From IMG/VR virus record IMGVR_UViG_3300020421_000003: a stretch of DNA of 64,000 nt, one strand, 5' to 3'. Origin of the DNA: a virus. Both the position numbers and the translations under genes were made by a program. The notes under the pieces are model-generated. The model saw only the letters and a list, made by a program, of their open reading frames with translations. It ran no database searches and had not been told where the DNA came from. Of this stretch, positions 6,046-49,200 are shown one piece after another (position 1 is the stretch's first letter; each line of letters begins with the position of its first letter).

Positions 6046-6046
6046 G

Positions 6047-20300: not shown

Positions 20301-21694
20301 TGTGGGTCAAAGAACCACATGTCATACTGGTTTGCTTGATCAACTTGGATCTGGACGATACGAGCACGACCGATTTGATTACCGATGATGCTGTTGGATA
20401 CGCCAGTATTCCAATCATCATACATTTCGATAACTTGGTATGCATCAGACACACCCTCACCAGTTAGGTTAGGCCAACCATACTGATCGTAGACCTTAAC
20501 AAAGTTACCAAGTCTGAAGTGGATAATACCGTTTTCTACACAGGCAAAATCTCTAGGTTTGGGGGAGTCAATATACTGAGGTGTCAGGAATTCAGTCCTG
20601 TACCCTTTCACGTACGCTCTACCAGGAGAGATCTCATAAGTTAGGAGATCATCTGTAGGAGAATTGTTTTGCTGAGTCGTCTGAGCAGGAGTGTAGACCC
20701 CGTTGTTAAAGCCATCATCCAGACACTCTCTTGGTTTAATACTGAAAGTGTCGATAACATAGTCGCCAGACTCTTCGTAGGTCCGACGTGCCATCGACTT
20801 CTCAAGCTCTGAGTATGCAGTATGATCAACAAACTGCTCAACTTTACTATTATTGATTCGTAGTAATTCAACGAAGTTTTTGTCAGTTGAATCATTGATT
20901 GCCTTCTTGACAAGAGTGGTCTTAATCTTAAATCTGTGACCGCCAGGTGCTGAGTAGTTTGAAGTGCCTGCAGCGTTGTCATTCAGTGACGGATCGTCTT
21001 CTGGAGTAACAATAGACTCACTAACTTCCAAACCAACCCTGTAAGAAGGGTTATTGCTATATTGCTCAAGGATCAAGTTTGCTGATTGGACATCAACAAA
21101 GTGACCTCTAATAAAGTACACACCATTGTTAATGTATGCAGCAGATGCAACCGCAGTAGAGTCAACGGGTAGCAACTGTCCAAATGGTGATCCAATTTCG
21201 ATCAGTGTTGTGCCGAAAGTAATCTCGTTTTCAGCAAGCAACTGCTCGTTTGATTGGAATCCTTTAATGCTGGTATCAGAAACTGTGTCACCAGACTCAA
21301 TATACTTAACGTATATCGTAACGTAACCACGCTCAGATTCTGAAGCAGGAATTGAATACAAGACCTTTGCTTTCACGCCAGTCGTGATGCCCTCAATGAT
21401 CTGACCGTGAAGTTGTGTCCTATAGGTTTCAACATCGACACCCAGGAAGGATTGTTGCAGGATGATTGCCTGCACATTCAGGTCATATCCGACCTGACCA
21501 GGGATAACCATCGCACCTTCTTTGAAGAAGTGTTGACCGATGGATTCAATTTGATTCTGGAGAATCGATTGCAGAGTCGTTAACTCACGCGCTTGGATAG
21601 GATACCCAGGGCGAAATAGCACTCGGTAGAAATTCTTGTCCTTATCGAAGTCGTCGAAATAAGGAGCAATATTTAGATTGGTATTCTGGGGCAT
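14387..21694 (-). CDS. 2435-aa virion structural protein (DUF4815 / VrlC-like)
   Basis: MPQNTNLNIAPYFDDFD..KNFYRVLFRPG..IQARELT.LQSILQNQ, ARRTYEESGDY, RLKNG.VVDDF, DPLAQSF, GVLFKSQNASTW...Q.EDLKF, DLR.IALA; follows gp8. Confidence 0.9.
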   Translation of the reverse strand: MPQNTNLNIAPYFDDFDKDKNFYRVLFRPGYPIQARELTTLQSILQNQIESIGQHFFKEGAMVIPGQVGYDLNVQAIILQQSFLGVDVETYRTQLHGQIIEGITTGVKAKVLYSIPASESERGYVTIYVKYIESGDTVSDTSIKGFQSNEQLLAENEITFGTTLIEIGSPFGQLLPVDSTAVASAAYINNGVYFIRGHFVDVQSANLILEQYSNNPSYRVGLEVSESIVTPEDDPSLNDNAAGTSNYSAPGGHRFKIKTTLVKKAINDSTDKNFVELLRINNSKVEQFVDHTAYSELEKSMARRTYEESGDYVIDTFSIKPRECLDDGFNNGVYTPAQTTQQNNSPTDDLLTYEISPGRAYVKGYRTEFLTPQYIDSPKPRDFACVENGIIHFRLGNFVKVYDQYGWPNLTGEGVSDAYQVIEMYDDWNTGVSNSIIGNQIGRARIVQIQVDQANQYDMWFFDPQMFTAINFASGNNSVSVGDVLRGRTSGARGFVAESGSGTNCRLEQVSGLFLNNEVIERDGRVIGTLEAAHTYNLSDVRRCIGRNDSNVVTFAANWLLNDNASIESSTVTVSGSGALATGFRTKFAQDLRPGDVVTTTASGLNGGNTLRIKRIDPTSIATNTGNIATGGTPIFDYLNQTAVMDATLKKGSGNADGEYAEMVRMRPFIFQKDYQNGELSIDTPRTSMKSISDESFFVYRTFANKTVVSGGVTVSLPESEQFASLDDENYVLTIVAESGSSYNVGDNLDIDNLNDLGSLTVTFGADAQSITISGLTNVNTVKLTALISKNIVTRKIKTAAKMRAMKVTRTRVNNDQTKYGLAYGNLYGTRIEDEEISFALNDVYKIHAVYESENDSDAESPYMVLSESTFFDNGSVVVGKTSGARGRVIQFVNSTLRLYFVALNEIPFIPGETIDGVDDDSTPLQAIVDDSEGSVSKGSKVITTQFELESGQKAHFYDVCKLTRLPGFSPPIRKILVVFDYFLHESSGDYFSSQSYTGILYKEIPKYKLDGSINYIRDQIDFRPGIGELASGSGTITSPFFVNCASLDFGSRQFDTSGGVGGSTIFDIPKVNTEFRCDYCYYLPRADKLYLTHDNQLKIVKGVSSEDLPHPDKIDNAMLLATIEMRPYVYDVERDVLIYPEIIKRYTMKDIGDLETRLSHVEYYTSLSLLEVQADNTKTYDDNGFDRLKNGYVVDDFTDHTVGDVLNIDYKCSMDFKEGHLRPSHYTTNVPLQINMGASSNVVKTSGNMVMLPYEDLEIITQPYASRTENVNPFNVFTFIGRIDLTPASDDWIDIERLPARVENVEGDFSAVARDLQIDQNGFAPIQWGGWQTNWTGESVQSTSRFSNRSGSFSSGGRRLGRLGHGQGRQPLFIHERRTYRVVNNQARQGVRTRVTPKIDRKSLGDTMLSQTAIPWIRSRNIGFNIDRLKPRTRMYYFFDGVNVSGYVTPKVIELTKSSTQDPNSNETPFVVGETVVGQTSGARVLVAPANDGYKTDPYGVGAAALAESYASQTNFLNIDITAMAETVNPNFYGNVNVGEVLLGLTSGARAVVRDRRLLADNVGNLQGTFFIPSPKNDSNPRWATGTRTVRVTTSDTNDRTPGNVDSSADASYSATGTLQTVRENILAVRNAEIVRDTVNDQRTVITTRTEQRQIGWYDPLAQSFICDSEGGVFLTGVDIFFRTKDANIPISIQIRTMENGYPTKDIIPFSDTTIDPDTVELSENASIPTRFTFRSPVYIKSNIEYCFVLLSDSNEYNVWISRMGDVDVTGTRTISEQPYAGVLFKSQNASTWTADQYEDLKFTMYRAEFTSNLGTAIFNNAELGKGNNGIHRLIENPIQTLKPKQTLTLPVGSNYTFTVGARIIQTPSGAEGTIVEFDATSDPETITISDIDGIWSAGFLDANNNTFQGIASSQSVATIILSAIFNGTFEVGDVVSGSTSASTGVVTAYDTGTQTLTLNYITRAFDVSDTLSEPGGTSATITSVNYSGDSYDAFPTSAPSYPNDDKEVLVYHRNHGMHQRSNNVEVEGIISEVPSTTLTTTLTAGATSIQVNDGSQFHTIIGGSPIGNLNQGYLKIEDEIIQYSAISGNGQVITVATSGRGNNGTADVEHPSGAIVECYNLDGIPLTEINKVHTNISCPWLDTYMLHIDSVATNGIRGGGVDVYASQNVQFETITPTVSTMVMADTNLSARLNTTTATSVGDGSTVVDQNSFINNGTYVDIVLNEQNQFTAPQMVASKINEQNKLDGNKSLTMSIMLETEKSSLSPCIDLDRVSLITTSNRVNMWPGGQSTYGQQSQIDRDQDVSTLAIGDQNDAVYITRLARLGREARSLKIDFQVTRHPATELRIYYKAFKVGDATDPNTIGWTQMGLPTSNQNLGEAYDTTPTEEYLWKDYTYEARGLNFNAFQVKIVMRSKNQARVPLIADLRSIALAT

Positions 21695-28268: not shown

Positions 28269-31200
28269 TTAGATGTCGTCGAAGATTTGATCTGGAGTGA
28301 AGTTACTGATCACAGTAGCACCAGTCTGGACCGTGAGGATAGCAGACAGTGAGTAGACAGGTGTAGCACCTGCAGCAGTGATTGCAACTCTGTATTCGTC
28401 ACCATCGTCTGCCTGAGCGGCATCGTTGGTGTTGTATGTTGACTGGTTAGCACCGATGATGTTACTCCAGGTCTGAGTGCCGTATTCCTTCTTCTGCCAC
28501 TGGTAGTTGAGTTGCTGACCGTTGGTGACGGTAGCAGCAACCGTGAAGGATGCAGTCTGACCTTGGTTAACTGTTACGTTGACAGGATCTTGAGAGATCG
28601 CAATCGCGCCAGGATCGATTGTATTTGTTTCACCGTCGATTGCCTCGTCAGCGTTGTAGATATCTCTACCACCGTTAACAGGCGTGCCTGAAGGATTAAC
28701 AAAGTCATCTGGGACCTCGCTATCGATAGCAACGATTGGTTGCAGGTAAGAAGTGCCAGGGGTCTTCACGTCAATGCGTGTGATACCCATGAGTGCCTTG
28801 ATGCGACCATCGAAACCAGAGGATGAAATCACGTCCACGTTGGGGCGTGAGGTGTAACCATCACCAGAGTTGGTGAGAATTGCAGTCTCCAACTGACCAG
28901 AGCGGATCTGGGCAAGTGCAGCAGCGTTACGACCCTTAACGGATCCTGTGTATTCAAAGGTGATCAGTGAGTTGGAAGATTCGATCAGAGCAACGTCACG
29001 AGCGAATTCTTCACCATCAATCTCAAGTTTGTCACCTGCTTCCACAGGTGGCACAACGGTTGCAGCGATCACGTCAGTGTCAGATCCAATGTAGGAGAAT
29101 CCAACAAAGGTTGATCCTGCGCGAGGCACTTCAGCGAAGATGATTCTAGATCCGACGATCTCGTATGCGACGCCAGGTTCTTGAATAATACCGTTGAGTG
29201 AAACGATGATGTTGTTTTCTGGGCGAATCACGTTAGACGAAACACCCTCAGTCAGAGTCAGCGAGTAGAAGAGACCTTCACGTCTGAGGTTGAAGGACGA
29301 GCGCAAGGAGTCAAACTCGAAGCTGATATCGTCCATCTGACGGAGTTTACCAACGTAGTAACCAACGAATTCAGATCCAATGTCAGGTGCCTCAGAGAAG
29401 TTAATCTTGTCGGAGAATGCGACATAGGAGTTGTTACCACCAGGAGGTTGCAGGATGCCATTGACGAAGATGAGCATGTGACCAGCGGGATCTGGGAAGT
29501 ATGCTTCACCATTGCTGATCGTGATATCAAACTGTGTTTGACTACCGTCGAAACCACGGAAGTAACGATCAACACGACCCTCAAGTGTGCGTGCGCTGGA
29601 GACTGCACCACCCCAACCGTAGTCAGAGGCGACGGTCATGTTGTTAAGGAAATCGCCCTTAACATTTTCCAACCAGACGGTTGCTGTGATACCCTGCTGA
29701 TTGATAGCAGCCACGCGCCCGTAAGAGTTGTATGCAGTGTCAGTGTAGGAAACAACGTTAGCGTAGATGCTTGGGAAGTTAGATCCAAGATCAAGTTTAC
29801 CGATGTTATTAGCACCTGTAATGACATCAGAGATGTCAGTGCCTGTGCCCACAGGGACCAAGTTACCGATAAACAAGCGATGGATGCCATAGTTTGGATC
29901 GGTAGGATCTGCGTTGACCCCGTTGATATATTCTGTGACCGTGGCACGGAAACCAGGATCCTTCAGTGTGGTGCCCTGCAGGAGGACGATCTCATCACCC
30001 ACTCGGAATGTATCAGAAACGCCCGTGTCAACGATTGCAGTGCCAAGCTCCAACTGATAGATGTTGGTGCCGTGGATATACTGGTTAAGTTGAATCTGTG
30101 TGCCCGAGAGACCCTTAATTTCGAGGATGTAGTCAGTGACGCTACCGTAGATGATATCGCCAGCATCCCATGCATCTCCGATGGTTTCAACGTCAATCGT
30201 AATACGACCACCGTCATTACCCGTAAGGGATCCAGACTTATTGAGGTATCCGTTAGCGTATGCCTCAACAGCAGAATTCTTATCAAACAACCAATCGCCT
30301 TGTGCGAATGATCCTTTCTCGACGTTAATCAACATGCGAGAATCGAAGGAAACAACATCAGCAGTTGTGCCGCTGTCATCACCAACCAGGGTATCGCCTA
30401 CGCTAATAACGCCTGCGACAGAAACCAAGTTGACGAAGTTTAGACCGTTTGAATCAGTTGTGCCAGTCTGTAGACATTGACCATTGATTACTGGGTTTCC
30501 ATTGACTCTAATAACTTCACCGTTGATGAAGTTTTCATAGACGCCAAGATTTGTGCTGACGTTATTCAACTCGAAACGAGTGTAGAGTCTATTGATCTCT
30601 GCTTGGTTGAGCGAGACGCTACCAATTTCAGAAGAGGATTCCGAAGTGGTGCCGTAGATAACATCTGCGGGGTTGAATCCACCCTGGATAGGAGTCTGTG
30701 AAGGATCTTCTGGGAAGAGAGGAGTAGACCTATTGATACCACTACGTCTGACGACGGAGAAGATCTGCTGACCAGTGTTGGCAGTGTTAACTTCAACTCT
30801 TCTAAATCTACCATCGTGGATGTAGTGAGCACCAACCTCAAACCACTGAGGAGTTGCAGTCATCACATACCAGTAAGTTTGATTAGTAAATGCTGCGACT
30901 GAAGTCTCAGATGCTGGGATATACTGGAGGATGTCACCACGACGGAAGGAGTTAACGCGGTTAATTCTGACTCTATATTCAGCGCGGTCGAAACCAACGG
31001 GGACGATAGGAGTAAGAGTAACCAAAGCAGGATCGGTGTTGTAATCGAATCCTAACTCATACTTGGTATTGATGTTAACTGCATCGCTACTTGGGACCCA
31101 AGTAACGCTACCTTCTGTTGGGAAGTTAGATGTTTCTAGTGAATACTCAATACAGTTGATTGAGGAGTCAATGATAAATTCAGATGCCTCACGGTTGTAA

Positions 31201-34200
31201 TCCAAGCGACCATTGATACCTAACTGATAGGTATTGTAGGTTGCCCAACCAGGATCTTCAGTCAACTGATACAAGACAGACTTGACATACTCACGCACGC
31301 GAGTGTTTGCGTAAATCAAGTGTGTGCGAGACACATCTTGGAATGCAATGAAGTTGCCCTCACCGTCAAACCAGTTTTGGACCAGTCTAAATGCACCTGC
31401 GTTACCACCAGTAACCATGTCATATCTGACTGCCTTGAGGATGTCAGCACAGAAGTCCACTGTCATTTCAGTGGTGCCATAGTAAGTCACAGTCTCATCG
31501 AATGCTCTTTGTGCGATAGCATCCTGGTTAAAGAGCAGCATGTTGGCAATTGTCTTGTCGGAGTTTAATCCACCGCCAAGAGTGTCCACCATGATGTCAA
31601 ACAGGGTGTCGATTGCGGACTGTGGTCCTTCACATGTGCCTGCCTGATAGCTGCTATTTACGTTAGCGTCAAGTCTAGTCGTCCTGAGAATAGTATCTAA
31701 CTTGTTAACATTACTATTTGCTGCCTCTTCGATTGTATCGATATAGATCTCAAGGAGTGTATCGATAGCAGAAGCAACTTCAGCACAAGTCTGATTCCAT
31801 TCAGCAGCAGAGTTGTTGTAAGTAACAGTCACATCTCTAACCGCAATATCAGGCGTATATTTAATAGGCCATATGCTAGGTAGAGTGCTAGTGCGGTTTG
31901 CAACGTTACTAGGATTGCTGATCGCGTCTGTAACCAGTGCCATCAAAGTATCAATCTCGGTTGCAACAGCATCAGACTCACTACCTGTGTAGGTAGGATC
32001 AACCAGACGTGATCTGTAGTATGACATATCACCTGTTGTGTATGCCCATGCTGCTGTAGGCTCGCCTTGTGGGACGGTGCTGTCAGAAGACATTGTGGCA
32101 AAACCACCAGGAGAGCTGCCTGCCAGCAATCCACCTGCCTCATAAAGACCAGTGTTTAATCCAGGGGTATTTGCTGCACCGATTTCGTTGCCATCAATCC
32201 AAAGTTTGACACGACCAGATCCAGCTCCAACAGTGCCACCAATTCTAATCTCCCAAGTGATCTCATGCTCACCACCATCGAAGTAGTCTGACAGACTAGA
32301 AACAGGCACGTCAAGAAGTGCAAGACCAGCGTCAGCAGAAGTGCTTGCACCACCTGCATATGAGTTAGCACCATTACCAGCACGGAGACGGAGGTATGTG
32401 CCGCTGTCTCGGATACCGAGGAATGCTCCAGCACCGTTTCCACCAAGCTCCCATAGGACGCCATCAGAAGGTGTGCCAGCAGGAAGTATTGTTACACAAC
32501 TACCGACCATATCTTCATCATTGGTAATACCAGTTGAAGAAGCAGATCCACTTGCAATGTTGTTTGTGCCGTTAGTAAATATGCGAGTAGCGGTGTTGTT
32601 ATAATTTCCAGCAAGGACGATACCATTATCAACTACTGAATTGCGAAGTACCGTAGTAGGTTTGGGGACTGCCTCAGAGAATGTCTGGACGCCACCGCTA
32701 TATGCTGCAATGTTAGTGATAATCTGACCACGCATTGCACGCTTCACCAGTCTCTTCGCCTCTTCCAGAATCCAATTTACCTCTGTTGCCAGAGATGTAA
32801 CGTGGGCGAGAGATCCACCGTATGTTGTATAGAATTCAGATACCCAGTTGATCCAGTTATCTCCACCATACTTAAGGTTGAAGACCAGTCCTCTGAGGAT
32901 GTCAGTCACGTCATGGACGCAATCGATGCTACCGTTAGCAACAACAGCACCTTCATGTGCATTGACAAAGGTATGAGTATATTGCTCACCTGCAGGAGAT
33001 GCACCAACGTTGATCGTAATCGTATCAGTGGTATGTGCAGTAATTAATCTAGATGTGGTGTATGCAGGATCACCTTTACGGGGGTAGTAGTTGGTAACGT
33101 TGTTACCATCAAGTGTGCATGTAAATCCAATAGAATCAGGTCTAACGGTAACTCTGTTACCTGTAACTAAACCATGACCTGCCATGGTAATGACCATCTC
33201 ACCACTTGATGCAATGTAAGTTGCATCCGATGGGGTGTATTGCTGACCACCGTAAATTCCACCGTTAATACTCAGTGAAGGATACTGTGTTTCACCTGCC
33301 TTAACTGCTTGCTCAGCAATCCAACGAATGTTTGCATCGATAGCATCACCACAATCTGCAAAGATTTGCTCCTTGGGGTTTGCTTCATAGGTGCCTGGAT
33401 CAACGTTGTTAGGATCGTTGCCAGGGATATAATCTCTACCGAAACCATTTCTCATGGTTATGGTTGCAATGTCTCTAACGAGTTTCATGACAGTGACAGT
33501 TGCTTCCCAATCATCTTCGATATGCTTCAGAGAATTATTCTCTGTCTCAACGTAGAGACTTGCAGCATCCCATGTCCTTTCATTACAGTTGTAGTTGAGG
33601 TCATGGATAAGAGCATTAAGGATATCCTTAACGTCATCACTACAGTTAACAGGACCACCCTTGATTTGGAATAGGGCATACTTGGACATGTCATTCATTG
33701 TCTCGACTGCCTCATGTGCAATCAGATCAATGTTTGCCTTAAGAGCGTTGGTAGCATCCTTATAACGATTCCAGTTAGAAACGCTATCCTGAGGATATCC
33801 TTCATCATCGATAATGATGGTATCATCTCTGTATGCGCCACGGGCAGTAAACAGAGGTGTGTGATAATCATCTTGTGCCCATGCTGCGATACCAAAATCA
33901 CTAGCAACCTCACCAGGGGAGAGGAGCAAGTTGTTAGCTGCTTTCTGTGTGAGATACTTGGCATGATGGAATGCGTCAAGCATTGGATTCAACTCATGCT
34001 CAACATGGAGCACATTATTTTGATCATCCAGATACTTATCAACGACTGCTTCCACGTTGTATGTGCCACCCGTGCAAAGGTCAGCAATCACAGCAGGGAG
34101 AATGAATTGCTTAATATCTCTCTCGCAATATGGTTGACCATAACCAGGCATCACCAAGAATTGTGTGACAGTGCCGTTGAGGTCAATCTCATACTTATCG

Positions 34201-37200
34201 AGAATGTATCCAGCAACTTCTTCTGCGATATAGTCGCGGTTTTTCCAGATCAGGACACCACTGTCTCTGAAGATATCAGGATTAGGTGCAAGGACTTCCA
34301 GCACTTCACGACCCAGTTGATCAAACTCATCCTGGATGGATTGAGATGCAGGAGATGCAAAGTTGTTGGGAAGTCTCAATCTGTTTGTATAGGTGCCAGA
34401 CAGATCTGTGTCAGTTGTAGTAATTACATACTTACAAAGGACGAATGCCTGATCCCATGCATACAGAGTTTGCAGAATCTCGTTACCAACGTGCTTCAGT
34501 TTGCCTGATGCCTCAAGGTAAGTACGAGCGGTGTAGAGAGAGTTGTAGTTACCACCGTCTCTCAAGTCCTTGACAAGAGCGCCGATGATGTAGTCTTTAG
34601 TATCCCTGATACACTTGTTGGTGCCACCATAACTACCTTCGGCCACGTTGTTGCCTGGGATGACAAAATCAGGGAATGCTGCTTCCATTCTACCGACTGC
34701 TTCTTCAGCAATCCAGGCAGCGTTAAGGTCGATAATATCAGCACAGTTTCTGTGATCTGATCTACCAAGATCAACGTTTTCAATGATTGCAAAGTTTTGA
34801 TCGTAGTTAAGTTCCTTGACAGCAGCAGAGGAGATACGCTGACCAGTGTAGATAGCATATGTTTCCTGATTATCAATGACGAATGGTTGCTCACCATCAA
34901 GACCAAACTTGACATACTGGTTAGAGTAGTCGATCTGGGTGGGAGGCACGAATGCAGTATTGAAGTCGGACTCTCCATTCTTAACAACCACGTTGTCCAT
35001 ATAACCGCCAAACTGGTTGGCAGCGTTAAAGTCAGCACCGATGTAGATGGCAGCGTAACCGTAGTCATTGGTATCAGCGTAGTTACCACCAACCTGCACG
35101 CCATCGACATAGAGTTGCAAGACGCTAGTAGTCCTGACAACTGCAATGTGATGCCAGTTGTTAGCAAGCAGCGTGCCACCAGTCAGCAGTTGAGACGTGC
35201 CGTTATAGACAGTGATTGCACCATTGGTTTGGAGAGTAATTCTCAAACCAGAGGCAGCAGACAGACGACGGAAGTCGAATAGATGCTGTGTGGTGAGAAG
35301 GTTATCTGCTCTAATCCACGCTTGGACGGTAAAGTCTGCAGTGTTACCGAAGGAGAAGTCGTAACTATCTCTAGTAACCAGATATCCGTTAGATGGGAAT
35401 TTGATAGACTTCTTACCGCTAAGTCTCTTGTATTTCTGGACAACACTTAGAGAAACGCCGTTTTGGTTAGAAGTGGTGGAGTTGGTAAGATACTCACCAT
35501 CCTGGAATGATCCAGTAACGGCATCAGCAAAGATCCATTTCAGACCAGAGTTAGATCCGATTGCTTCAAAGTTTGCACCGCTAGTAACACCAGTAATAGT
35601 GTCTCCAACAATAAACAAACCACCCGCACGATCCTTGTATGCAATCTTCGTTGTGCGAATATTTTCGTTAGCAACGAATGTGCCATCGGTGATGCTCGCG
35701 AGAGCGTTAATATTATTGAGGTTTTGTGCTGCAATCGCAGTCGTAGAGATGTCTACGAGCGTAGCGATATATGCCTGGACGTTAGCACAATTCTGGATTG
35801 TTTCATTTCGGCCTGAGTAGTAATTGGGGTCGAAATACTTGGCAGTTGTGCCACCGCCAGTGAAGACTGCATTATCCAGTGCCTTGACGAATGTATGGGT
35901 ATATCCACCACCGCTACTAACTGCATTAGCAGAAGCACCAGCCCATGTGTGAGCATACTGTTGACCCTCAGGAGAGTTACCAACGTTAACCGTGATGGTT
36001 GTTGCGGTAACACCATGGATAAACAGACGACGACCAGCAGCAGGGTCACTTGCTCTAGGATATGTCTGGGCAGCGACGTTACCATCAGAATCACATGTGA
36101 ATGATATCGAGTCGGTAGCAATACTTACATAGTCATTAAGCTCAAGACTATGTGCTCCGATGGTCAATGTCATATCACCCGTTGCTGGGTCATAGGTGCC
36201 ACCAGTTGGGGTGTATTGGACTAGAGGAGATGCGCCAACGTTGACTGTGATTGTAGTGCCAGTCTCAGCACTAATAGCAAGAGGAGTGTTGAATGCAGGA
36301 TCTCCAGCACGAGGATAGTCGTGGAAGGATGCATCGTTATCAGAATCACAAGTAAACTTCAGAGAGTGTGGACGGATCGTAACGGTATCCGAAGTTGTCA
36401 GTGAGTGAGTGCCAATGGTAAGGACCATTTGACCATTTGAAGGTGTGTAGACTGCAGAAGACACGTCGAATTCTTGCAGATCATCTTCACCACCACTGTA
36501 GGATCCCTGATATGTTGTAGGATCTTTCAGCATGAATCCAGTGACAGAAGTCCTGGAATTGACTTGATAATAGAGAAGGTTGTTGATTGCCTGGAAGGAC
36601 AAGTGCATTGCCTTATCGATAGCAGTCAGAGATTCTGCATACTCACCGATTAGACCGTTAGCAATAGGTGCTCCAGCAGCATCGAAATACTTCTTAGTGA
36701 ATTCGATGATGTTGTAGTTGCCACCCTGAGAAACGTCTTCTGCCAAGGCATCGATCATCAGACCGATGTCACGACGACACTTGATTTGACCAGGAGAATA
36801 GGTGCCTTTCGACTCATCAGGAAGGTCAACCAGCGTGCCATTCAGCAGAGTTTCATCAACCACATCATAGAGAGTGGTGATTGCTGCTTGGACATCACTG
36901 CAGTTGTCAGTGCCATTGTTGGACTGGTTAGCACCGTTAGTGCCGTATGGATCGTTAGGTGATGGATCGGGATTGATACCGTTGCCATCATAACCACCAT
37001 GATCTATCTCGCTCCAAGGGACGTAGGTGATACCATCATTAGGTTGACCAGCAGGCACCGTGAAACTAGAAGTCAGATTGTTGACGATTGCCAACTTCAT
37101 CATGTCTTTTGCTTTTTCAAATCCATAACGAGTCTCAGCAGACTCATTGTTGACATACACAAAGTTGCCATTTACATCAAAGTATTTCTGGCAGAGTTTA

Positions 37201-40200
37201 CGAGTATATTGGTTACCACCACGGAAAATGTCAATGGAGATAGCATCGATATACAACTCAAGGTCACGGATACACTTATTAGGATCAGGCACAGTAAGTG
37301 ACGTATATTGCGTCATCATCTCATCGTATGCCTTATTAGCAATGTAAGACTTATTCTTTTGAATCAGACGATATGCATCAGAGTATCTGCTCCAGGAGTT
37401 AGTGATAACATCACCAGGGAAGTAGAATCTAGGGTGCTTAACAGCAATTTCTGCTTCAGCAAAATCAACGATTTGATCTTTGTTGCCAAGGATCATTGCC
37501 GAAGCATCTTTGAATCTGTTGGTAGCAACACCATGGAAAACAGAGGTTGGATTACCGTAGTTTGCTCTGTTGTTGATAACAATATCACCTTCATCGAAGG
37601 TGCCACCAGACAACTGAGTGTATTCAACTTCAGTATTTCTAACTTCTTCAAAGTCGAGGAAGTCAGCATTAATTCTGTTAGCAGTATTGTAAAGCTCAGT
37701 AGGTGTAATAGAAGATTGTGAAATGTTATCGATGATAACGTTAGGATTAGTAATACTAACCAGACGCTCAAACAGCAGACCGTAGAATGTAGATCCTGGG
37801 TTGATAATCAACTCATCAACAGCATCCTGGGTGGCAGGATCAATATAAGGTGAGATGTATGTAATTTGACCAGCAATCTTAGATGATGCTGAGTAAACAA
37901 ACTCATTAAGTCTCAGATCAAAGATACCAGTTTCAAACTGTGCAGTACCTGAGGTCTTACTAACCACGATAGCGTCAGTGACATTGCCATCGGGATCAAT
38001 ATTAGTTTCTTCAATAATAGCAGTGTCGCCTTCAAGGTTAGTGATAGACTCACCAAACTGGAAGATCGTTTCGCTATTCAATAGAGTAACACTCTGGACA
38101 AGTCCTGAGAAGAGGGTGCCACGAGTGATCTCCTCATTCAGGTTGAATGATCCACCAACCAAGTTGATAACATCAATAGTAGTCGTGCCAGAATCGATAA
38201 CAGTAGCAACAACGTCACTATCTGCACCTTGGACTTGCTGACCTATCGTTGGGAAGATTCCGAAGTTTGGTGGACCTGCCTGACCAGAATACAATTGAAT
38301 TCTGTAAATTGGTGTAGGAGTAACCTCCAGAGATCTATAGTTAACTCTAGATGCTGGTTTTGGTGCCTCACCAAATACGATCTGTCCACCAACGATGGAG
38401 TAAGAAACGCCAGGTGCCTGAATCACACCGTTGATAGTAATCAGCAGTTGATTCTGTTGGACGATAACTTGCTCACCTTCTACAGTAAGTGGGAATTGCT
38501 TATCAATACCGTTAAACTGAGGTGAAATATCATCAAGTTTCTTCACGATAGAGGTCAAGATTTCCTCAGAGGAAGTCAGACGCTTTTTACGGAAGAGGAC
38601 TTCAGTATTGTTGTAATCGGTGTAAATTGGTTGTGCTGCACCGAAAGATGTGATCTGGTTGACGTTGGAGTAGTTATTGATGTTAACTTCCTTCGTAAAC
38701 TCAGTGCCGACCTTTCTGCCCGAAACATCCTTACCACCAACGATCTGCAACTGTCCAAACATGTTGAAACCAGCAGGGTGGTTGTTTTCAAGGATTTGAG
38801 TCTTCCATTTGGTAATGGGGATCTCAGACTTAACAACGTAAGAGAAGTTTTGATAGAAGAAGGAATCTTGGATTTTTTGGACGATTTCGGATGGTTTACC
38901 AACATTATCGATAAACTTACCAGGAGTCTTAGTCAAAGATCCAATATTCAAGACACCACGAGCAATACTCATGTTATCGATAACACCAGATGCTTTGGAG
39001 ATGGATCCAGTGACTTTTTCGCCCATTTTCCAATCACCGTCGTAATCGACGATCTTGAGGATCTTAGGACCGATTTGCCAACCAGTATTGGTAGAAACCT
39101 TACCAGTTGCACTTGCAAGCTCAACTGCACTACCCTGGAAGACTTCTTCGCCTTCAAGGAAGCGAGATGTCTCAACAACTGCTTCTGCTTTACCACCGAA
39201 GACTTCGGTGAGCAATACTTGACGACCACTACCCTGAGTCAAGAATGTGATGTAATCACCTGCTTGTGCTGACTGTAGAGTCAATCCAAAGCGGATTTGG
39301 TCGGATTCCAGTGAATTTGCCTGACCAGCGATTGCATAGTAGATCTGACCAGCAATCAATGAAGTCAAACCTGCGCTGGATGGTTTGGGAAGGATACCTT
39401 CAGTGCTACCAACATCTTCAGCACGGAATTGGATTTCTGCACCAGTTGTGATGCCGTGAGGGAAGTTAAACTGCAGATAGTTGAGGTCAAGGTTAACAAC
39501 GTAGTTAAACTCAGACTTCAGCGTGACGATGGGCTCAGAAGAGTAACCAGCACCAGGATTCTTGATAATAATCTCATTGAGTCGGTTATTCTTAATAACA
39601 GCAACTGCATCAGCACCTTGACCGCCACCACCTTCAATAACAACTGCAGGAGTTGATGTATAACCAGCACCAGGATCTGTGATCTTGATCTCGGAAAGAA
39701 TCGACGTATTGAAGAGTTGGAGGTTAACAGGGAAGGTGATTTCGGGTTTCAGGGTGTAATCATGTGAATATCCGAAACCAAACTCATTATTCTTGAGTCT
39801 CTTAATCTTACCAATGTTTCTACCTGTCAAGAAGACAGATGCACCACTACCTTCGCTAGGAATGATAACATTTACAGCGCCACCAGATCCAGACAGTGTG
39901 GGACCAAGGATACCAGTAATAGCGTCAATATCTACAGTAGCAACGGTATAACCCTTACCAGGATCTGCAACATTGACTTCAGCGATTGCACCAGACCCAG
40001 TTTCATCATCTAGAAGGACTGTGACGGTAACTTTACCACCTTCGCCGTCTCCATTAACAGGAACGTCGTAGTAGACGCCAGGTGCGTATTCTGTGCCGCC
40101 ATCAACGATCTCGACCTTCTCAATTTGACGGAAGGATGCAATATCGGAGATGATGGGCAGTTTCTTATAGAATCCACCAGGAGAAACCAGTTTGATGCTA

Positions 40201-43200
40201 TTAATAGGACCAACTGCTCTGGTAGATGTCGTAGAGTAGTATGAATACTCATTTCCTTGATCATCAGATCCGATCTCAGCGTTTGCACGCTCAGGCTCTC
40301 TGTTGAGTGGGAATTTGAATTCAGTATCGCTTACAATCTCACTAATGTTAAATCTACCCTGGTATGGAGTTGTGATAACGTCAATGTATGAGTTTTCACC
40401 AACTGGGGAGTCATCTCCAGTCCTTGATGGGTCGAAGTAGTAAGAGATGTTAGTAACATCACCAAGCACCAAGAATTTAACAAATGGAGTGCTTGCACCT
40501 GCACCTTGGATACCAGGAGTGCCCTCTCTAACAGTATTGTTGAAGGAATACTCCAGTTTATACTGGTTATCCTGAGAGAATGACAGATAGTAACCGAAGT
40601 TGGAAGGATCGCTAAGCTCGAAGTTATACTGGTGATTTCTAGTGAAAATCAGAGTAGGATGCTTAGCATAGATGTTGACGTTTGCAATTCCATTGTTTAC
40701 AAACGTTGGATCTGACACTGCGGTGTCTCTAATACCAAATGTGAATTCTCTAGATCCAATAACATCATCGATGAAGAATGATCCGTTATATTGAGCACCA
40801 GAGAATCCTTCAGTGAAGATAATCTCATCTTCTTTGTAGAAGTGTGGAGAATTAGATGTGCAATAGACTTTATCAGTCCTAACGCTGCTAGCAAGAAGAA
40901 TATCTTTCTCAAGACGTGCAGTAACACGAATCTTCTTAACAGATGCAAAACCAGAGATCTCTACAGACTTCTCATCTTCTGACAGAGTGATATTGTTGGT
41001 GTTGACACTAACAACGTCATTAGGAATGAAGTTTGATCCAGGTTGGACTTCTAAGATTTCAATACTATAGTTGTTACCTTGATCATAAGGCATCAAACGG
41101 GTGTACTGACTGATTGCCTCGTTAGTCTCAACGAAGGACCAAGTAACAGTGCCGTCAGAAACGTCACCAGTGGTATGAGTAGGGGGAGTAGTTGTAGTAA
41201 CACCACCGCCACCAACAGCAACCTGATAAACGTTGAGTTTATACCACACACGCTGACCAACAGCATATAGACGATGTGGCAACCACTCAGGCATATCCAG
41301 ACCAGTAAATTCAGGTCTAGGGAAGGGATGCTCAGTCAGATCAACAGTAAACTTACCTGCATCGTCAATGAATGCCCAGTTAATAACACCATCGGAAACA
41401 ACACCAGTGTTGTGCTGAGGTGAAATAGTGCCAGATGTGCCAGCACCTTGTGCTTCATAGATTCTCTTTTGGTTGTAGACACGATCACCTTGTGCATATG
41501 CAGTTGATGCTGCCCAAGGAGATTCCTCTTCAATAGTATCGAAGTAAGTGCCTTCAATCTGGTTGATATCTCCACCAGGAGTTGTAGTGCGGAATCTATC
41601 AGTATTATTAAATGTGCCAAAGATCTTACCAACTCTATACTTGGTGCCAATACCAGGATTCTGCAGAGTGCCTGCAGGGACTTCTGTGATAGTTGCAAAA
41701 GCAGTAGTAGTGCCAATGTTGTTAAACTGCTGCAGTATAGAATACTGAGTAAGTCTAATTGGTTGAGTAAACGTAAATTCTTGGACGTTATCAATCTTCT
41801 GATATAGAGCATCCCTCATGTAGAATTTGGGGATAACATCAGCAGAGATAATTAGTCTCTTACCACGAGGTGATGGGATAGTAGAAGTCTTGGATGCATA
41901 CTGGTCATACGCTGAAGATAGTGTATATGTACCAGGGATCAACGTGGAGAAAGTCTGGGACATGTCCAGAATTTGCAGACCACCAGGACCCTCTAACCAT
42001 GTAGAAATTGCACCTGGAGAAACACTCGTCCAAGTCATACCGATAGTATGATCGGTGAATGCAATATCACTATACTTGTTAAGACCAGTCAGGGTGTAAG
42101 ATGCACGCTGAGTATGTGCTCTATCAAACTTGATCAGTGCAACATCAGAGTTGGACGTAGTAATTGCAATCTCAGAAGTGGGCACAGTGTAAGAAGTGCC
42201 AGGATAAGGTGCAGCATCATCGAGCACAAAGTCGTCGATGTTACCACGGAAACTATTTGCAACTGTTGGAGGACTGGAAGGACCACAGATAACAACGTCA
42301 TCAAGAGCAACATCAGTAGTGCTCTGATAAGTGATCTGCTGGTTACCGCCAATGAATACCTCATAACGATACAGACCCAGAGATTCTTGACGTTTCTGGA
42401 CAGTAACATGGACCCATGCTGCAGCAGCAAAGGCATCCCAGTTAGTTGCAGCAACAGAAGAAGCAACCTGAGTGCCATTCAAGTAAAGAATAACCTTCTG
42501 ATAGTCAGGATCGGTGTTATCACCCTGAATAGTTGCAGTAATTGAGTTGGTATTAGTTGCATCGTTAAAATGCAGCAATGTGGGCTCGTGTGCAGTATTC
42601 CATGCTGTCGTATTCATGGACATCCACATTCTGCCACTCCACTCAACAGGGGTCAGACCCAAGTCAGCGATAGTGATAGGTGCAACGTCATTAAACTTCA
42701 GAGATCCGCCGTCAAACTTGTAAACAGCAGCATCATGAGTGATATCAGACTGACTGAAGTAGTTGTAGGTGCCAAGATTTTGCTTGGTGGTATCCTCAAC
42801 AGGATTTTGATCATTACCCATTCTCCAAGAGACGAGCTGATCAGATTGCTGACGGTTGACAGCAAGAATAGTATCACCAGAGTTATCCAGAGCATGAGTA
42901 GTTGCTTGGAAACCGATACTCGCAGTATCATCAACCTTAGTTTGATACAGCAGAGTGCCGTCATACTTCATATAAGTGATAACTGAATATCTCTGATTCT
43001 GTGCTTCAGTAACGTCAGAAACGAGAGTATAGTTACCCCACTGGTCATAAGAAATGCCAGCATGGTGCATTTCAAGGAAATCACCAGAAGTTGTAACTGT
43101 CTTACTCCAATCCCACTCAGTTTGTGCAGTGGAAAGGAGGAATTTGTTGATCTGGATCTTATCGTACTTAGATGCTGCAGAGTTGAAGATATCCCAAGCA

Positions 43201-46200
43201 ACAATGATTGCACCATAGTCATCCATGACCATTGTTGGGTTGACAACACGTCCACCCACCGTAGGAATCTGCTTGATCCAATCCATCTCAAGGTTTGCAC
43301 CATCGTAGAAGAATTCACCGAAGATCAAGTCATCATTTTGGTCATTAACACCGATAAAGAAGAATCTATCATCGGAAACCATCATGATCTGATGCATTTT
43401 CTCGGAATCATCCTGAGATGCAACCTTACGCTTCTCAACCAGATCGCCTTCAATACCACACTGGATGATCCACATATCATCGGGATCAACAGAGTTAGTA
43501 TCGGTATAACCGCAAAGGTATATACGTTGCTCCTGGTCAAGAGCGATAGAAGTCACAAAGTCTCTTCTGGTGCTACCAGAGATACCAGCAATTGCTCTCT
43601 GCCACTGCAGGATACCGTCAGGATCGTTTGCATTGTTGAATCCAGACTCGTATAGACCTAACCAGATGTCTGGGTTGTAGACATCGTTGTCAGGATTCTT
43701 TGTTTGGCCTGTAACATATATGAGGTCGTTTTCTGGAGCAGAATTGACCACCATCTTGAGGAATTCAGCCCTCTTCTGGTTAGCATTGGTAGGAATGAGA
43801 GTCCTCTCCCAGATCTTCTGACCCAAGTCATCAAACTTGGCAAGGAATCCAGATTCATCACCATCTGTCTCAGTGATCTTACCGCAGATATAGGTATAGC
43901 GTTGCTCGGTAACCTTAATATCGTTGACTTGCACGATACCATCTGCTTCCATGTATTCGGTCAACCAATAGCGAGTTTTCTTAAACTGCTGTGGGTGGGA
44001 GACACGAATTTGAGGAGGCTCCTCAGGGTCATAACCATTACCAGAGTTGATAATGTTAACACTGTTGATCTGACCAGTATTTTGTAGGACAATCTCTAGT
44101 TGACCATCTTGACCAGCAGATGTGATCAATTCAAATGTAGGAGGAATGTCTTCGTTGTAACCAACACCAACCTGGGTTACATTGATACGCTCAATACCAG
44201 ATACAACTTTAACTTTGAAGTTTTTGTTGGTGTTATCAATGACAGGAGAAGAGTTAAGAATCAACTCATCTTGCTGACGCAAATCATGATCAGTAGAAGT
44301 TACGATTACACCATAAGGGCGATCACCGATGATCTCCTTACTGTATGATTGGATAACTTGACCCTTAACAGATTCGATAAGTGCAGAAGCACCAAAACCA
44401 CCAGTACCTTCATCATCGAAGAAGATGGTGTCATTAACCTGATAAGACTCGCCTGGGTTTTCAATAACGAAACCGTCGATCTGAGCATCTTCAAACTGAG
44501 TAGTTGTCTCAACTTCGATGTCAACTCTAGACTCTTCAGAAACCTGAGGGAAGTAATCATAGATTTGTAGAGTTGCCTCTTCAGACATCTCAAGGACTTC
44601 TTGCTGCTCATTAGCATCAATGATTCCGTCGTTATTACTGTCCTGGACCTCAAAGATAAGAGGATAACCTTCAATCTCAGTCGTTAGGACATCTGCTTCC
44701 TGGTTAGGTTGACGATCAACATCAATATCAACGTTAACATAAGGATCTCTATACCTTACAACGTTTTGTGGAATGTTTTCCTGGGTTGCACCTTGGGTGA
44801 AATTCCAAGGATCAGGCAGTGAGTTAAACTGAGGACCAAGGATATATGGGAATTCAGCAACACCTGCTTCCGATGCATCAATAGTAATAAAGTATGCATA
44901 GGTGCCATTAGGATACTGAGGTGTCTTACAGAAACGACCGTTATAGTTGTCGAGATCACCAGACTGGAAGTCATACTCATAGTCAGCAACAAACGATCCA
45001 GCAGGATATGAGGACAGTGTAGGTCCATCAATACGAGCAGGATTGGGGTTAGTTGCTAGGTCATATACAACGTTATCTTTTAGTTTATATGAAGTGCGAA
45101 GTCTCCTGATTCCGCTATTCTGGTCAGTTGGGTCAATGTAACCGTAGGGACCGTAGATTGGGTTACCATCATACGCCCAACCCAGAATAGGAGAGTGCTC
45201 ATAGTTGGATTCAACTTCTTGGAATTGTTGTGTAACAGCATTTAGGAAGACGTTATCGCCAACCACATAACGAAGCTCTTTAGGATCGCTAAGGTGAGCA
45301 TATTCACCACCAAACTGGTTATTCAGACCAGTAAAGACGTATCCTCGTGCTCCATCATACCTAGTAGAAAGATCATACTGAAGGTTTTTATTCCACTCAA
45401 ATACTTGTGGAGTAAACTCAGCAAAGTCGCCAACAGACTCAAGTCTAACAGTGGTAAGACCTTGGGTATATCCAATACCTCTGTTACTGATGTCAACGCT
45501 AAGGACTCTACCTTTATCTTCGCCAATAGTGCCGATAACTGCTCTTGCAATAGCACCGAAACCATCGCCATTGATGACAATAGTAGGAGCAGTAGTATAT
45601 CCACTACCTGAGTTAATGATAGCGATAGAAACAATACGACCATTGATAACAATGGGTTGTGCCAAAGCACCTTCACCAGAGTTAACTCTGATATCAGGCA
45701 GGTCTGTATAACCACTACCATTGGCAGTGATACTAACACTTTGAATAGGACCACGGACGTTTGCATTTGCCGTAGCACCTGTGCCACCACCACCAGTAAT
45801 AGAAATACTAGGTTGTGAAGTATATCCTGATCCTGGTTGCTCAACCAGAATTCTGGTGACACGACCACCAGTAACGATGGCTTGTGCAGTTGCTCCAATA
45901 CCACCACCGCCAACGATGGAGACTAGAGGAGATTCTATGTATCCGCTACCTTCTGCAGTAACATCAAGTGAAGTCAGACTACCATTAACAACAACTTCAC
46001 CAGTAGCACCTGTACCGCCACCACCAGCAATTTCCAGAGCAGGTTTGGATCCTGCATCATAATCTTGACCAGTGTTAGTAACAGTGATGCCAGTCAGAGG
46101 ACCGAATCTAACAAAGTCGCCAGACTTGTATGCCCAGATAGACACACCATTCACCCATGCACCAATTGAGGTGTTTGCTTGAATATCTTGACGCTCAGAG

Positions 46201-49200
46201 ATGGTCTGGACGTTACGGGGGAGACGAATCAGTTTACGCTGGTTACCAGGGATCAGTGCCGATCCCGTGAAAGGACCAACCTTATAATTGGGTAGACCAG
46301 AGGAAGCAACATAAACATACTCATCATTAAAGAAGGAGTTTTGGATATTTGTTGTAAACTCGCTAACAACACTGTTGATGGAATTGACATCGGACTTACC
46401 TCTGTTAAGGTCCACAGATAGAAGGATATTACCTTCAGGGATTATCTCTGTGGGAGTATTGATCTGATATGTAAATTGGAATGCATCAATACGAGAAGTA
46501 ACGGTAAACGTGCCATTGAATACAACAGGGTTAGCACCATAAATCGTCACCTGATCAGATACCAGAAGACCATGTGGGTTACCACAGACAACCGTAGCAG
46601 TCTGGTTATTAACACCACCAGGAGTGATGCTGGTAACCTGAATTAGTTTCTTAACGTTATACAACCAGGAAGACAGTCTCTCATCTTCAGAAGAAGATCC
46701 GAGTTTAGCAACCTTCAGTTTGTCGCCTTGCAGATAGTAAGATCCAGTATCTTCCAGGATCGTTGTACCTGCTTCTGCAATACCAAGCACTCTGAGTTTA
46801 CACTCAGTAGGTGTATCCTTATTGACATATACAAAGATGTCAGAGAATATAATCGTGCCAGGATCCCAGTCTTCTACAACACCATTCTGTGATCTGGTGC
46901 ATTCGATAAACTGGTTAAGTGATTTCTCTTTATACTGTACGATCTCCCTATCGTTAATACGGATGGTGCCGTTTCTTTCTGGCCATCCAATCGTGGAGTC
47001 AACGGTAATAATCTGACCAGTTGTATTCAACGGCTCAACTAGAGTCGTCTTATAAGGAATGATGAAATCGCCATTGAGGGTCTCCTCAGAGATTGCCAAT
47101 TCGTAGATAGTGTCCTTACCTTCAATAATGGTAATGACGTTTTCAATCAGAGCATTTGCTGCCCTGACACTAAGGTCAACAGGATCAGCATACTGAATAA
47201 GTTGTGAGTCAATCAGATTAGCAGGGTCACCTGAGATCAACTCAGCACGCAGCACCGTATCAACAACCCAGGTTGCAGCAGATGGTGAGATGATTTCTTC
47301 ACGGGGATAGTAGATATCCACCTGCTCACCAAACATGATCTTAAACAGATACTGTGTAGCAAGCTCAGTACCTTTACTGATGTAAAAGTCACTAATACTC
47401 TTAATTACCTGGACTGGATTGATTACAGAATAATCAATCTTAATATTGGGCAGATATTGTCTTCTAAATTTGTCAAAGACTTCTTTGATAAACAAAGAGT
47501 CTAGGTTAATGACCGTAGATGCTGCAGGGTGAGTAGACTGACGCAGTGCTGCTTCACCTGCATAGATTTCATTATGAAGGTTGTCATATCCAACAGCACC
47601 AGATACACCACGACTACATCCTAAGAATGCAGAAGGTGAATATCCACTACCTCTTTCAATGATCTCATAACCAGTCAGCTCGTTGAAACCAACAGCAACA
47701 GATGCTCTTGCTGCTTGAGGCTCAGCAATGAAAATCTTAGGAGGCTCTGTCTCAGAATATCCAGTACCGAAGTTGGTAATGTTGATATCGGTGATTTCGC
47801 CGTTAAAGATAGTTGCAGCAGCAGTTGCACCTGTGCCACCAATGGGATCACCGTAAGGATCCTTTCTATCATCAACAATGTATACAGAAGGAGCATCGGT
47901 ATAACCTCTGCCACCTGTCAACATTTGAATGTTGGTAACGTTACCAGATGCGACAGTAACGTCAAGCACCTGAGCACCAATAGGTTGAATAATCCTTGCT
48001 CTAGGTGGGGTTACATACCCTCTACCTCTATTTGTAATAACGATCTCGTAGACTTGACCGTCTTGGTTGATTCTGGAAATTGCCTGAGCATTAATACCAC
48101 CCTCAGGTGCTGGATCCAGATATACAATAGGAGGATTACTATAGTTCAGTCCAAATTCTTCGACAGCAATACTGTCAATGTTTACACGACCTTCACTATC
48201 AATTGTAGGTTGACCAATTTTACAACCACCAGGATTAACAAACGAAATAGCAGGGATAAAGTCATATCCACTACCAGAATTCATAATAGTCAGACTATCG
48301 ACCTGACCTGTTGTATCATCTACAGTCAGAGCGACTTTTGCCAGTGTGCCACCCGTAGGAGCGCCTACAAGGGCAAGAGGAGGGTTATATGATGTGTAAC
48401 CCTGTCCACCATCAATTAGGTTGATATCCTTGATACCACTAACCAAAGTTTTGGCAGTTGCACCTACACCTTCACTGTGCTGGACTGTAACCTTAGGTGC
48501 AAAGTCTAGTCGGTATCCACTACCACCAGTTTTAGGAATCAGGCGGTCAACTTGACCATTATCGTCAACAGAGACAACTGCAGATGCTCCAGATCCAAAA
48601 GAAGGAGCAATATACTCAACAGAGCGAATATGGATATCATCAGCAGCACCCAATGGGAATCTGAAGATAATTTCACTTCCATATACGGTATAGTCGGTAT
48701 ATGCCTCAAGTTGGCGATTGTTTTTCTTGACAATCAGACCAATTGCTGAAGTTGGGGTATATGGTTGTGTATTTACTCTGAGAGGATATTCTTTCTTACC
48801 TTGATACTCTTCAAAGGGAATTGCATCAGTTGTGACGATCGTTTGATCGGCATACCCAACCAAATAGACAATTTCAGTGAATGCAGAGTCGTCAGCACCA
48901 GATCTTTCACGGGGAGCAACAGCAAAGCGAATTTCATCGCCTTCCAGAAAATAGTCAGTCCCAGGGACCAACATATCATTATATGTGATAACAATTAGGT
49001 GATCTGCAGAAGGGGGATTTACAGGAGTGCCTAAAAAGTTAAGAGGGAATTTATTTCTAGTCCCATCAAACAAAGCGAAGGGATTTTCGAGTTGTTGTTT
49101 CTTTTTATCAAACTGACCAGGAGAAACACCTGGAGTAACAATAGCATCAGGTCCACGAGTAACAGTCTCGTAGTAGATTACCTCATTATCGATCTGGATA

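Follow-up and report, generated by a model that had tools for sequence, protein, structure and literature searches.

The window analysed here is a stretch of 64,000 nucleotides of viral DNA (IMG/VR record IMGVR_UViG_3300020421_000003), and all positions given below refer to it. Its minus strand carries a giant open reading frame (ORF) of 7072 amino acids (aa), the product of which is a putative gp7-like giant baseplate wedge or virion protein. Residues 3989-6125 of this ORF hold an array of seven units predicted to adopt the globin fold of phycobiliproteins (PBPs), the light-harvesting antenna proteins of the phage hosts. An earlier note on this DNA had described tandem phycobiliprotein-like repeats with both bilin-attachment cysteine motifs in this region. 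The ORF, the coordinates and the motifs were as claimed, and a profile built from six of the window units recovered seven copies in the protein, an insertion dividing one of them in two. The profile matches extended over aa 4029-4153 (R1), 4190-4318 (R2), 4907-5041 (R3), 5067-5200 (R4), 5236-5354 (R5), 5370-5598 (R6, insertion-split) and 5971-6085 (R7). Alignment of these stretches gave a unit length of about 120-130 residues and the consensus D-A-x3-I-x2-N-x3-I-A-x-E-A ... P-G-x2-K-C-x-R-D-x-G, continuing as D-L-x2-G-G-N ... Y-F ... G-E ... A-x2-N-x-L. Among the three motifs distinguished in the earlier note, motif (a) corresponds to helices A-B and motif (b) to helix E with the PBP signature Cys84/Arg86/Asp87. 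The 7072-aa protein contains five copies of C-x-[RHK]-D, none of them outside the array. The four matches to C-x6-I-x3-[FYLV]-[DE], the pattern of motif (c), likewise lie there; all four copies put forward as part of the repeat are thus present, but the motif is rarer than the units (four versus seven).

The layout of the array is summarized in Table 1. R1 consists of helices A, B, E (KCIRD, Cys4072), F and G, followed by a G-H loop, disordered and about 55 aa long, and by helix H, which starts with the motif (c) residue Cys4196. The orphan hairpin upstream of it was aligned by phmmer to residues 43-71 of allophycocyanin alpha-B. R2 is without an A-B pair of its own, and its core helices span residues 208-227, 231-238 and 256-274 of the AlphaFold2 (AF2) model. 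Small beta-domains with conserved F-T-C-x2-D and Y-P-R-x2-D-P motifs are nested in the units at varying places. The G-H loop of R2 holds two of them and the B-E loop of R6 one; more divergent loci have the domain in the F-G region. A Pfam scan of the inserted beta-domains gave no match; in the VIA structure search those of R2 resembled small beta-barrels, for example the phi92 endosialidase barrel (Z about 7). R3 carries Ser5048 at the position of the beta-Cys153-type (motif (c)) cysteine. By analogy with R1 and R2, the helix starting at Cys5901 is probably helix H of R6, placed behind the 297-aa insert. This insert is rich in Gly and Ala and, by eye, resembles a second concanavalin-like jelly roll. 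The earlier note had also listed three degenerate copies of motif (b). Two of these, C5282 and C5523, do occupy the Cys84 position, with Asp and His, respectively, in place of Arg86. The third, C6013, does not: in the alignment Met6008 takes the place of Cys84 in R7, which retains the Asp, and Cys6013 follows two residues after this Asp.

Table 1 Features of the giant ORF and its phycobiliprotein-like array
Feature	Position in the window	Strand	Basis
Giant ORF, 7072 aa, carrying the array	28269..49487	minus	one uninterrupted open frame
Orphan A-B helix hairpin, aa 3989-4026, upstream of R1	37410..37523	minus	weak unit-profile match, columns 4-41
R1, aa 4029-4217, complete predicted beta-type PBP domain	36837..37403	minus	PF00502, 27.1 bits; AF2 and VIA
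R2 core, aa 4229-4320: helices E (KCRRD, Cys4237), F, G	36528..36803	minus	unit profile; AF2
Two beta-domains of ~85 aa each within the R2 G-H loop, aa 4335-4555	35823..36485	minus	AF2 all-beta, model residues 311-516
Helix H of R2 (motif (c), Cys4567)	35700..35792	minus	AF2 helix 540-560, moderate confidence; N-C-A-x-V-Q-A kept in orthologues
LamG / concanavalin-like domain between R2 and R3	34983..35384	minus	Pfam PF13385, E 3e-20; PDB sequence match 4qvs_A
R3, aa 4907-5066, complete: helices A, B, E (KCIRD, Cys4959), F, G, H	34290..34769	minus	AF2, Foldseek, VIA
R4, aa 5067-5200: helices A, B, E (YCERD, Cys5121), F, G	33888..34289	minus	unit profile, 145.5 bits
R5, aa 5236-5354: helices A, B, E (NCSDD, Cys5282), F, G	33426..33782	minus	unit profile, 128.2 bits
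R6, aa 5370-5598: A-B, beta-domain, then E (DCVHD, Cys5523), F, G	32694..33380	minus	profile match split into 5375-5415 and 5508-5589
Beta-domain in the R6 B-E loop, aa 5416-5507	32967-33242	minus	same motifs as the R2 inserts
297-aa insert after the R6 G helix, aa 5599-5895	31803..32693	minus	no Pfam match at E <= 1
Two motif (c) helices, Cys5901 and Cys5952	31575..31790	minus	motif match
R7, aa 5972-6085, degenerate unit	31233..31574	minus	unit profile, 111.7 bits; alignment

Sequence comparisons related the units to PBPs. The phycobilisome family PF00502, which the earlier note had proposed as a check, was matched by the array region with 32.4 bits and by R1 alone with 27.1 bits, both above the curated cut-off of 22.2; R3 alone scored 16.8 bits and the remaining units fell below the reporting level. 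The same family is also present in the precomputed annotation of one relative. When all PDB sequences were searched with the six-window-unit profile, 39 of 42 matches were PBPs. A profile of 139 units gave 142 matches (best E 5e-6), the best 60 of which were all PBPs, comprising alpha and beta chains of phycocyanin, phycoerythrin, allophycocyanin and phycoerythrocyanin as well as cryptophyte antennae. Profiles of 6, 24 and 139 sequences each returned PBPs almost exclusively. The profile alignments placed the Cys, Arg and Asp of the units on Cys84, Arg86 and Asp87, the preceding Lys on Lys83 and the G-G pair on residues 102-103. Units and PBPs share the register Asp39-Ala40-Ile44-Asn47, Lys83-Cys84-x-Arg86-Asp87-x-Gly89 and Gly102-Gly103. 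hhalign comparisons to phycocyanin, using sequences from cyanobacterial genomes located by DNA pattern, gave probabilities of 86% for the alpha and 50% for the beta subunit. In the beta alignment, the D-A...I...N stretch starting at D4037 fell on beta Asp39-Ala40, Ile44 and Asn47. The identity of the units to PBPs is about 15%.

The predicted fold agrees with this assignment. An AF2 model of R3 (aa 4896-5072), with the 139 aligned units as input, had six helices, a mean predicted local distance difference test score (pLDDT) of 89.7 and a predicted template modelling score (pTM) of 0.85. Foldseek against the PDB, likewise proposed in the earlier note, returned a globin-like fold with PBP beta chains filling the best 50 matches (template modelling (TM) score 0.60-0.69 over 160-177 columns), at modest E values of about 4e-3. 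VIA, a structure search that is independent of Foldseek and covered 48,161 chains, placed PBPs in the first eight rows for R3 (Z 13.2-16.0; 5aqd_M at 16.0), including the bilin-binding domain of ApcE, and below these sensor globins at Z 11.5 or less. A second AF2 model covered R1 and R2 (aa 4028-4600, 25 orthologues). Here, residues 1..188 of the model superimposed on residues 26..184 of phycoerythrin beta (5aqd_M) with Z 16.0 and a root-mean-square deviation (rmsd) of 2.4 Å over 146 residues. These models indicate that the units are genuine globin-fold PBP domains with the core helices A, B, E, F, G and H, as the earlier note had proposed.

The R1-R2 model also bears on motif (c) and thereby on the second cysteine site. 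Our first reading, from MAFFT and hidden Markov model alignments and from the co-occurrence of cysteines, took motif (c) for a variant of the A-B helix, N-terminal to Cys84 and not beta155-like. We dropped it because superpositions of the R1-R2 model show the motif (c) helix to be helix H of the preceding unit, and because P-HM1 and more divergent loci have motif (c) behind helix G, with a loop of 25-40 residues in between. The helix from Cys4196 comprises model residues 170-189 and is part of the R1 superposition, which ends on the final residue of every PBP chain. Cys4196 itself is model residue 169 and lies 19 residues before the C-terminal superposition point; in phycocyanin beta, Cys153 is likewise 19 residues away from the C-terminus (residue 172). 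This register was read off the alignment ranges, without a residue-level structural alignment. There is also a local match between the unit (N-G-T-D-N-C-S-D-V-Q-A-A-I-T-T-L-Y-D) and N-G-I-T-Q-G-D-C-T-A-L-M-S-E-I-G-T-Y-F-D. For R2, VIA rows over model residues 208..562 aligned the E-G helices together with the Cys4567 helix, at moderate model confidence. The models thus indicate that motif (c) is the end of the G-H loop and helix H of a beta-type PBP, with its cysteine in the beta-Cys153/155 register. A cysteine of this type is found in R1 and R2 and probably in R6, and is replaced by Ser in R3. Asp39, the ligand of the beta155 bilin, belongs to the register described above. The claim that both bilin-attachment positions are kept, the helix-E Cys on Cys84 and the motif (c) Cys in the beta-153/155 register, was accordingly borne out by the alignment ranges.

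We then counted how well these positions are conserved, using 138 units that were non-redundant at 90% identity (139 aligned units for Arg86 and Lys83). The Cys84 position is Cys in 107 of 138 units and in six of the seven window units. Asp occupies the Asp87 position in 132 of 138 units, and an equal number has a phage-specific Asp at PBP position 98; G-G-N follows helix E in 113-126 of 138. Of 139 units, 83 retain Arg86 and 61 retain Lys83. The most frequent cysteine pattern is a single Cys at position 84 (32 units), which fits poorly with an obligate disulfide within the domain. Among 150 representative giant relatives, which together have 1552 units, strict helix-E motifs carried Cys in 768 cases and lacked it in 17 (98% Cys). 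The same relatives have 232 motif (c) helices, fewer than their 1552 units, with the consensus N-x-[ND]-P-x-[SA]-C-A-[DN]-V-Q-x2-I-D-T-L. In 24-25 orthologues, down to 32% identity, no variation was seen at Cys4196, Cys4237 and adjoining residues, and at least 90% retain Cys4072; K-C-R-R-D of R2 is invariant, and D-V-Q after Cys4196 varies little or not at all. Selection has apparently maintained both attachment positions together with their partner residues.

To assess the distribution of the units, 50,697 phage records were searched by tblastn with R3-R5, a stretch of 459 aa made up of units alone. All 357 matched records were cyanophages; the earlier note had named repeats equally common in phages of non-phototrophic hosts as speaking against its proposal, and none were found in such phages. 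The few matches of a longer query in Pseudomonas and Acidovorax phage records vanished once the LamG and beta-insert parts were excluded. The 139-unit profile found nothing in T4, Vibrio phage KVP40, the SAR11 myophage HTVC008M or the cyanopodovirus P-SSP7. HTVC008M belongs to the same family, Kyanoviridae, and yet is unit-free by this profile. In P-HM1 the profile detected six units, spread over two giant ORFs. Foldseek against predicted viral structures (BFVD) gave credible matches solely to cyanophage or uncultured-phage proteins, one of them from S-PM2. The six-unit profile located 529 units in 80 related viral contigs, and a HMMER scan of 1.84 billion representatives yielded 1494 proteins; the best 150 of these are nearly all giant and multi-unit, with up to 36 matched stretches in one. 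In these searches, the domains were restricted to cyanophages, i.e. to phages of bilin-making hosts. Contigs of 2-5 kb from metagenome-assembled genomes that bear the label Candidatus Nanopelagicaceae (freshwater actinobacteria) also encode multi-unit PBP-repeat proteins. These contigs are likely mis-binned cyanophage DNA, and they suggest that freshwater relatives also carry the domain.

Taken together, we propose that the seven domains derive from a host gene for a beta-type PBP and would then have been duplicated and interrupted by nested insertions, the array coming to lie in the distal half of a gp7-like baseplate protein. The domains may still bind bilin covalently, to which we assign a probability of roughly 45%. 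A pigment of the phycoerythrobilin or phycocyanobilin type would be thioether-linked during assembly in the host cytoplasm. Attachment at the Cys84-type sites could be autocatalytic as in ApcE or be carried out by host S/U-type lyases, and the Cys153-type sites would be served by a T-type lyase, the kind that cyanomyovirus clusters A and B encode. Several points count for bilin binding. First, no member of the PBP family is known to lack bilin. Second, Asp87, which is the most conserved residue of the units after the fold-defining glycines, is not known to have a role in PBPs beyond holding the pigment. Third, the cysteine is kept and not replaced by Ala or Ser.

Cyanophages carry genes that could supply and attach such a pigment. 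The bilin genes Ho1, PcyA, PebS and CpeT are limited to cyanomyoviruses, with the exception of a single podovirus with pebS (PMC10452541). cpeT occurs in more than 60% of T4-like cyanophages, and the lyases of cyanomyovirus clusters A and B are all of the T-type (PMC10665884), which acts on beta-Cys153/155 (PMC10452541). The role of the phage bilin genes is unexplained (PMC3037559), and they are present even in phages of Prochlorococcus hosts without phycobilisomes (PMC3037559, PMC10452541, PMC10665884). A further puzzle is that P-HM1, P-HM2 and S-PM2 adsorb in the light only, independently of photosynthesis and by an unknown mechanism (PMC6628666). Units were found in two of these light-dependent adsorbers, P-HM1 by profile and S-PM2 by structure match. 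Among five related IMG/VR contigs, a CpeT match was present in the only complete genome and in one 60% fragment, and no bilin reductase was found in the same five. The co-occurrence with CpeT that the earlier note had suggested testing was seen in part: a CpeT query matched 235 phage records, all of them cyanophages and P-TIM40 and S-WAM1 among them, but this corresponds to only about two thirds of the unit-bearing records (235 versus 357), and co-occurrence of lineage traits is confounded by shared ancestry. Phage Ho1, PebS and PcyA might provide pigment where the host makes little, and a pigmented appendage could, as a weaker step, make adsorption light-dependent. The complete chain, with bilin-carrying virions, CpeT loading the beta155-type sites, Ho1, PebS and PcyA supplying the pigment and the appendage acting as a photoreceptor that gates adsorption, is unlikely to hold in every part.

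Besides the incomplete co-occurrence with CpeT, several observations weigh against bilin binding. The sequence similarity ends after helix E in every profile search and in hhalign, and the C-terminal equivalence comes from predicted structure alone, in an R1-R2 model with a mean pLDDT of 67. The units start at helix A and have no PBP X-Y hairpin, since superpositions begin at PBP residues 17-33; sequence alignments, too, set in no earlier than residue 23. Compared with PBPs, the B-E loop has lost about 8 residues and with them the region of Asn72 and Arg77/78, and R2-type units are without helices A-B. Many units lack one or both cysteines: 22% are without the Cys84-type residue, and most have no motif (c) helix. 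Each inserted beta-domain has a single invariant Cys of its own; conserved thiols are thus not confined to the bilin sites, and a thiol or disulfide role is conceivable. Finally, we found no report of coloured or pigment-bearing cyanophage particles in the literature; we estimate that particles with 100-200 bilins each would be difficult to recognise as coloured at densities under about 1e12-1e13 per ml.

Much of this would be expected if the host PBP fold had been kept as a pigment-free, stable helical building block of a long baseplate appendage, the main alternative and only slightly less probable than bilin binding. The cysteines would then serve packing, redox chemistry or disulfides between domains or subunits that form after release into oxic seawater. 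The domains do sit in a structural protein amid LamG, beta-barrel and propeller modules, and the losses of the X-Y helices, of part of the B-E loop and, in some units, of helices A-B point in the same direction. Six conserved cysteines lie in aa 4028-4600, those of the beta-domains included, and all 33 motif (c) helices situated just upstream of a helix E are accompanied by the helix-E Cys. Cofactor-free modules of the globin fold also exist, such as RsbR, which is itself among the VIA matches. A scaffold does not account for the identity of the best-kept residues, however: Cys84 and above all Asp87 are not known to contact anything but bilin in PBPs. Nor does it explain the retention of Arg86 and Lys83 at the frequencies given above, or why strict helix-E motifs almost always have Cys where Ala, Ser or Val could stand. 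The disulfide between motifs (b) and (c) considered in the earlier note is argued against by the PBP fold, in which the chromophores at beta84 and beta155 are about 34 Å apart, and therefore no bond is expected between the two cysteines within a domain; a partner geometry for a disulfide is not evident, and the commonest pattern is a lone Cys. A purely mechanical role also leaves the restriction to cyanophages unaccounted for.

It is improbable that the old cleft holds a ligand other than bilin, be it another tetrapyrrole, a metal or a host surface ligand, and acts as a receptor-binding or sensor pocket like that of sensor globins. The structural matches following the PBPs are indeed sensor globins (DosC, Z 11.5, rmsd 3.3 Å), photocobilin and the stressosome protein RsbR, and helix E has the phage-specific invariant Asp at PBP position 98, followed by GGN. 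Against this, the pattern of a heme-ligand histidine is not seen, the conserved signature is that of bilin binding, and the sequence profiles match PBPs only, among the matches listed for the 139-unit profile. That the likeness to PBPs arose by chance or by convergence of generic helical repeats is effectively refuted: single-sequence E-values to PBPs are weak and helical bundles often yield middling structural Z-scores, but PF00502 exceeded its curated cut-off, profiles of all three sizes returned PBPs almost exclusively, PBPs reached Z 13-16 as opposed to 11.5 or less for other folds, and the motif register is common to units and PBPs across helices A-B and E.

The genomic setting is consistent with a baseplate protein. 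Residues 691-732 of the giant ORF have a weak match to Pfam Baseplate_wedge PF23786 (23.2 bits, cut-off 27), the genes flanking it on either side match the wedge PHROGs 219, 677 and 438, and its relatives carry the annotation 'baseplate wedge initiator' or 'structural protein'. By protein similarity, the closest cultured relatives are the marine cyanomyoviruses P-TIM40 (40% identity), S-WAM1 and P-RSM6. Megablast of the array region against the phage collection gave no nucleotide-level match; IMG/VR contigs are 85-98% identical across one unit. The N-terminal half of the protein contains a YHYH domain (PF14240, E 9e-29; aa 1393-1538, window about 44873-45311, minus strand) and, at aa 1970-1997, a beta-propeller SBBP repeat. 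Another two giant virion ORFs lie downstream at 14387-21694 (2435 aa) and 6854-13771 (2305 aa), both on the minus strand; they match PHROGs 358 and 697. A plastocyanin gene, petE, with a signal-like N-terminus is located at 228-551 (minus strand). Its best match in a prokaryote genome collection (71% identity) is on a contig binned as Verrucomicrobiales, which is probably a mis-binned phage contig.

In the literature we found no description of PBP domains in a cyanophage baseplate protein. A virion protein that carries dozens of PBP domains, both attachment sites being intact, represents a concrete candidate for both a bilin substrate and a photoreceptor. If it were a pigmented photoreceptor, this would explain light-dependent adsorption as well as the bilin genes of Prochlorococcus phages. 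If it is pigment-free, it nevertheless offers a clear example of how a virion building block was made from a host light-harvesting fold. In either case the fold has multiplied, with as many as 36 stretches matched by the profile in a single protein and about 1500 protein clusters carrying it (best 150 of 1494 inspected). Why some cyanomyoviruses adsorb in light only and what phage bilin genes are for thus become testable questions, and virion pigment and light sensing are now open to testing.

Several known systems can be compared with the array. T4 gp7 is similar in its gene position between a gp6-like gene and other wedge genes and in the weak N-terminal Baseplate_wedge match, but it has about 1000 aa and no PBP-like domain, in line with the absence of unit-profile matches from T4. 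The N-terminal domain of RsbR and globin-coupled sensors use the same general fold as a module in a larger assembly (Z 9-11.5, low rmsd). They differ in that no sequence relationship to the units was detected, the bilin signature is absent and they score below every PBP. PBP beta subunits (CpcB, CpeB and cryptophyte beta chains) are like the units in helices A, B, E, F, G and H, in K-C-x-R-D at the start of helix E, in D-A-x3-I-x2-N of helix A-B with its beta-type Asp39, and in a G-H loop that ends in a Cys right before helix H. Unlike these subunits, the units have no X-Y hairpin and hence show no sign of alpha-beta heterodimers or rings, and their B-E loop is shorter. They stand in tandem in one virion protein with other domains nested in the B-E and G-H loops, have diverged to the low identity given above and are marked by the phage-specific invariant Asp (position 98) and by GGN behind helix E. 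The units are unlikely to assemble into (alpha-beta)3 rings or phycobilisome rods, because the X-Y helices are missing and the units are covalently joined in tandem. Another comparison is with ApcE, the core-membrane linker (LCM), whose N-terminal domain is a PBP fold in a large multidomain protein with a large insertion between helices B and E, as in R6. ApcE structures were among the top structural matches (4xxi_A with Z 15.0 and 13.9; 7sc7_BD, 7eyd_19 and 9wg7_N2). ApcE has one PBP domain together with REP linker domains and resides in the phycobilisome core, whereas the array comprises seven PBP domains in a virion protein; ApcE uses a displaced Cys, whereas the array units have the canonical Cys84 position. 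ApcE binds its bilin without a lyase and thereby shows how a non-standard PBP domain can be pigmented.

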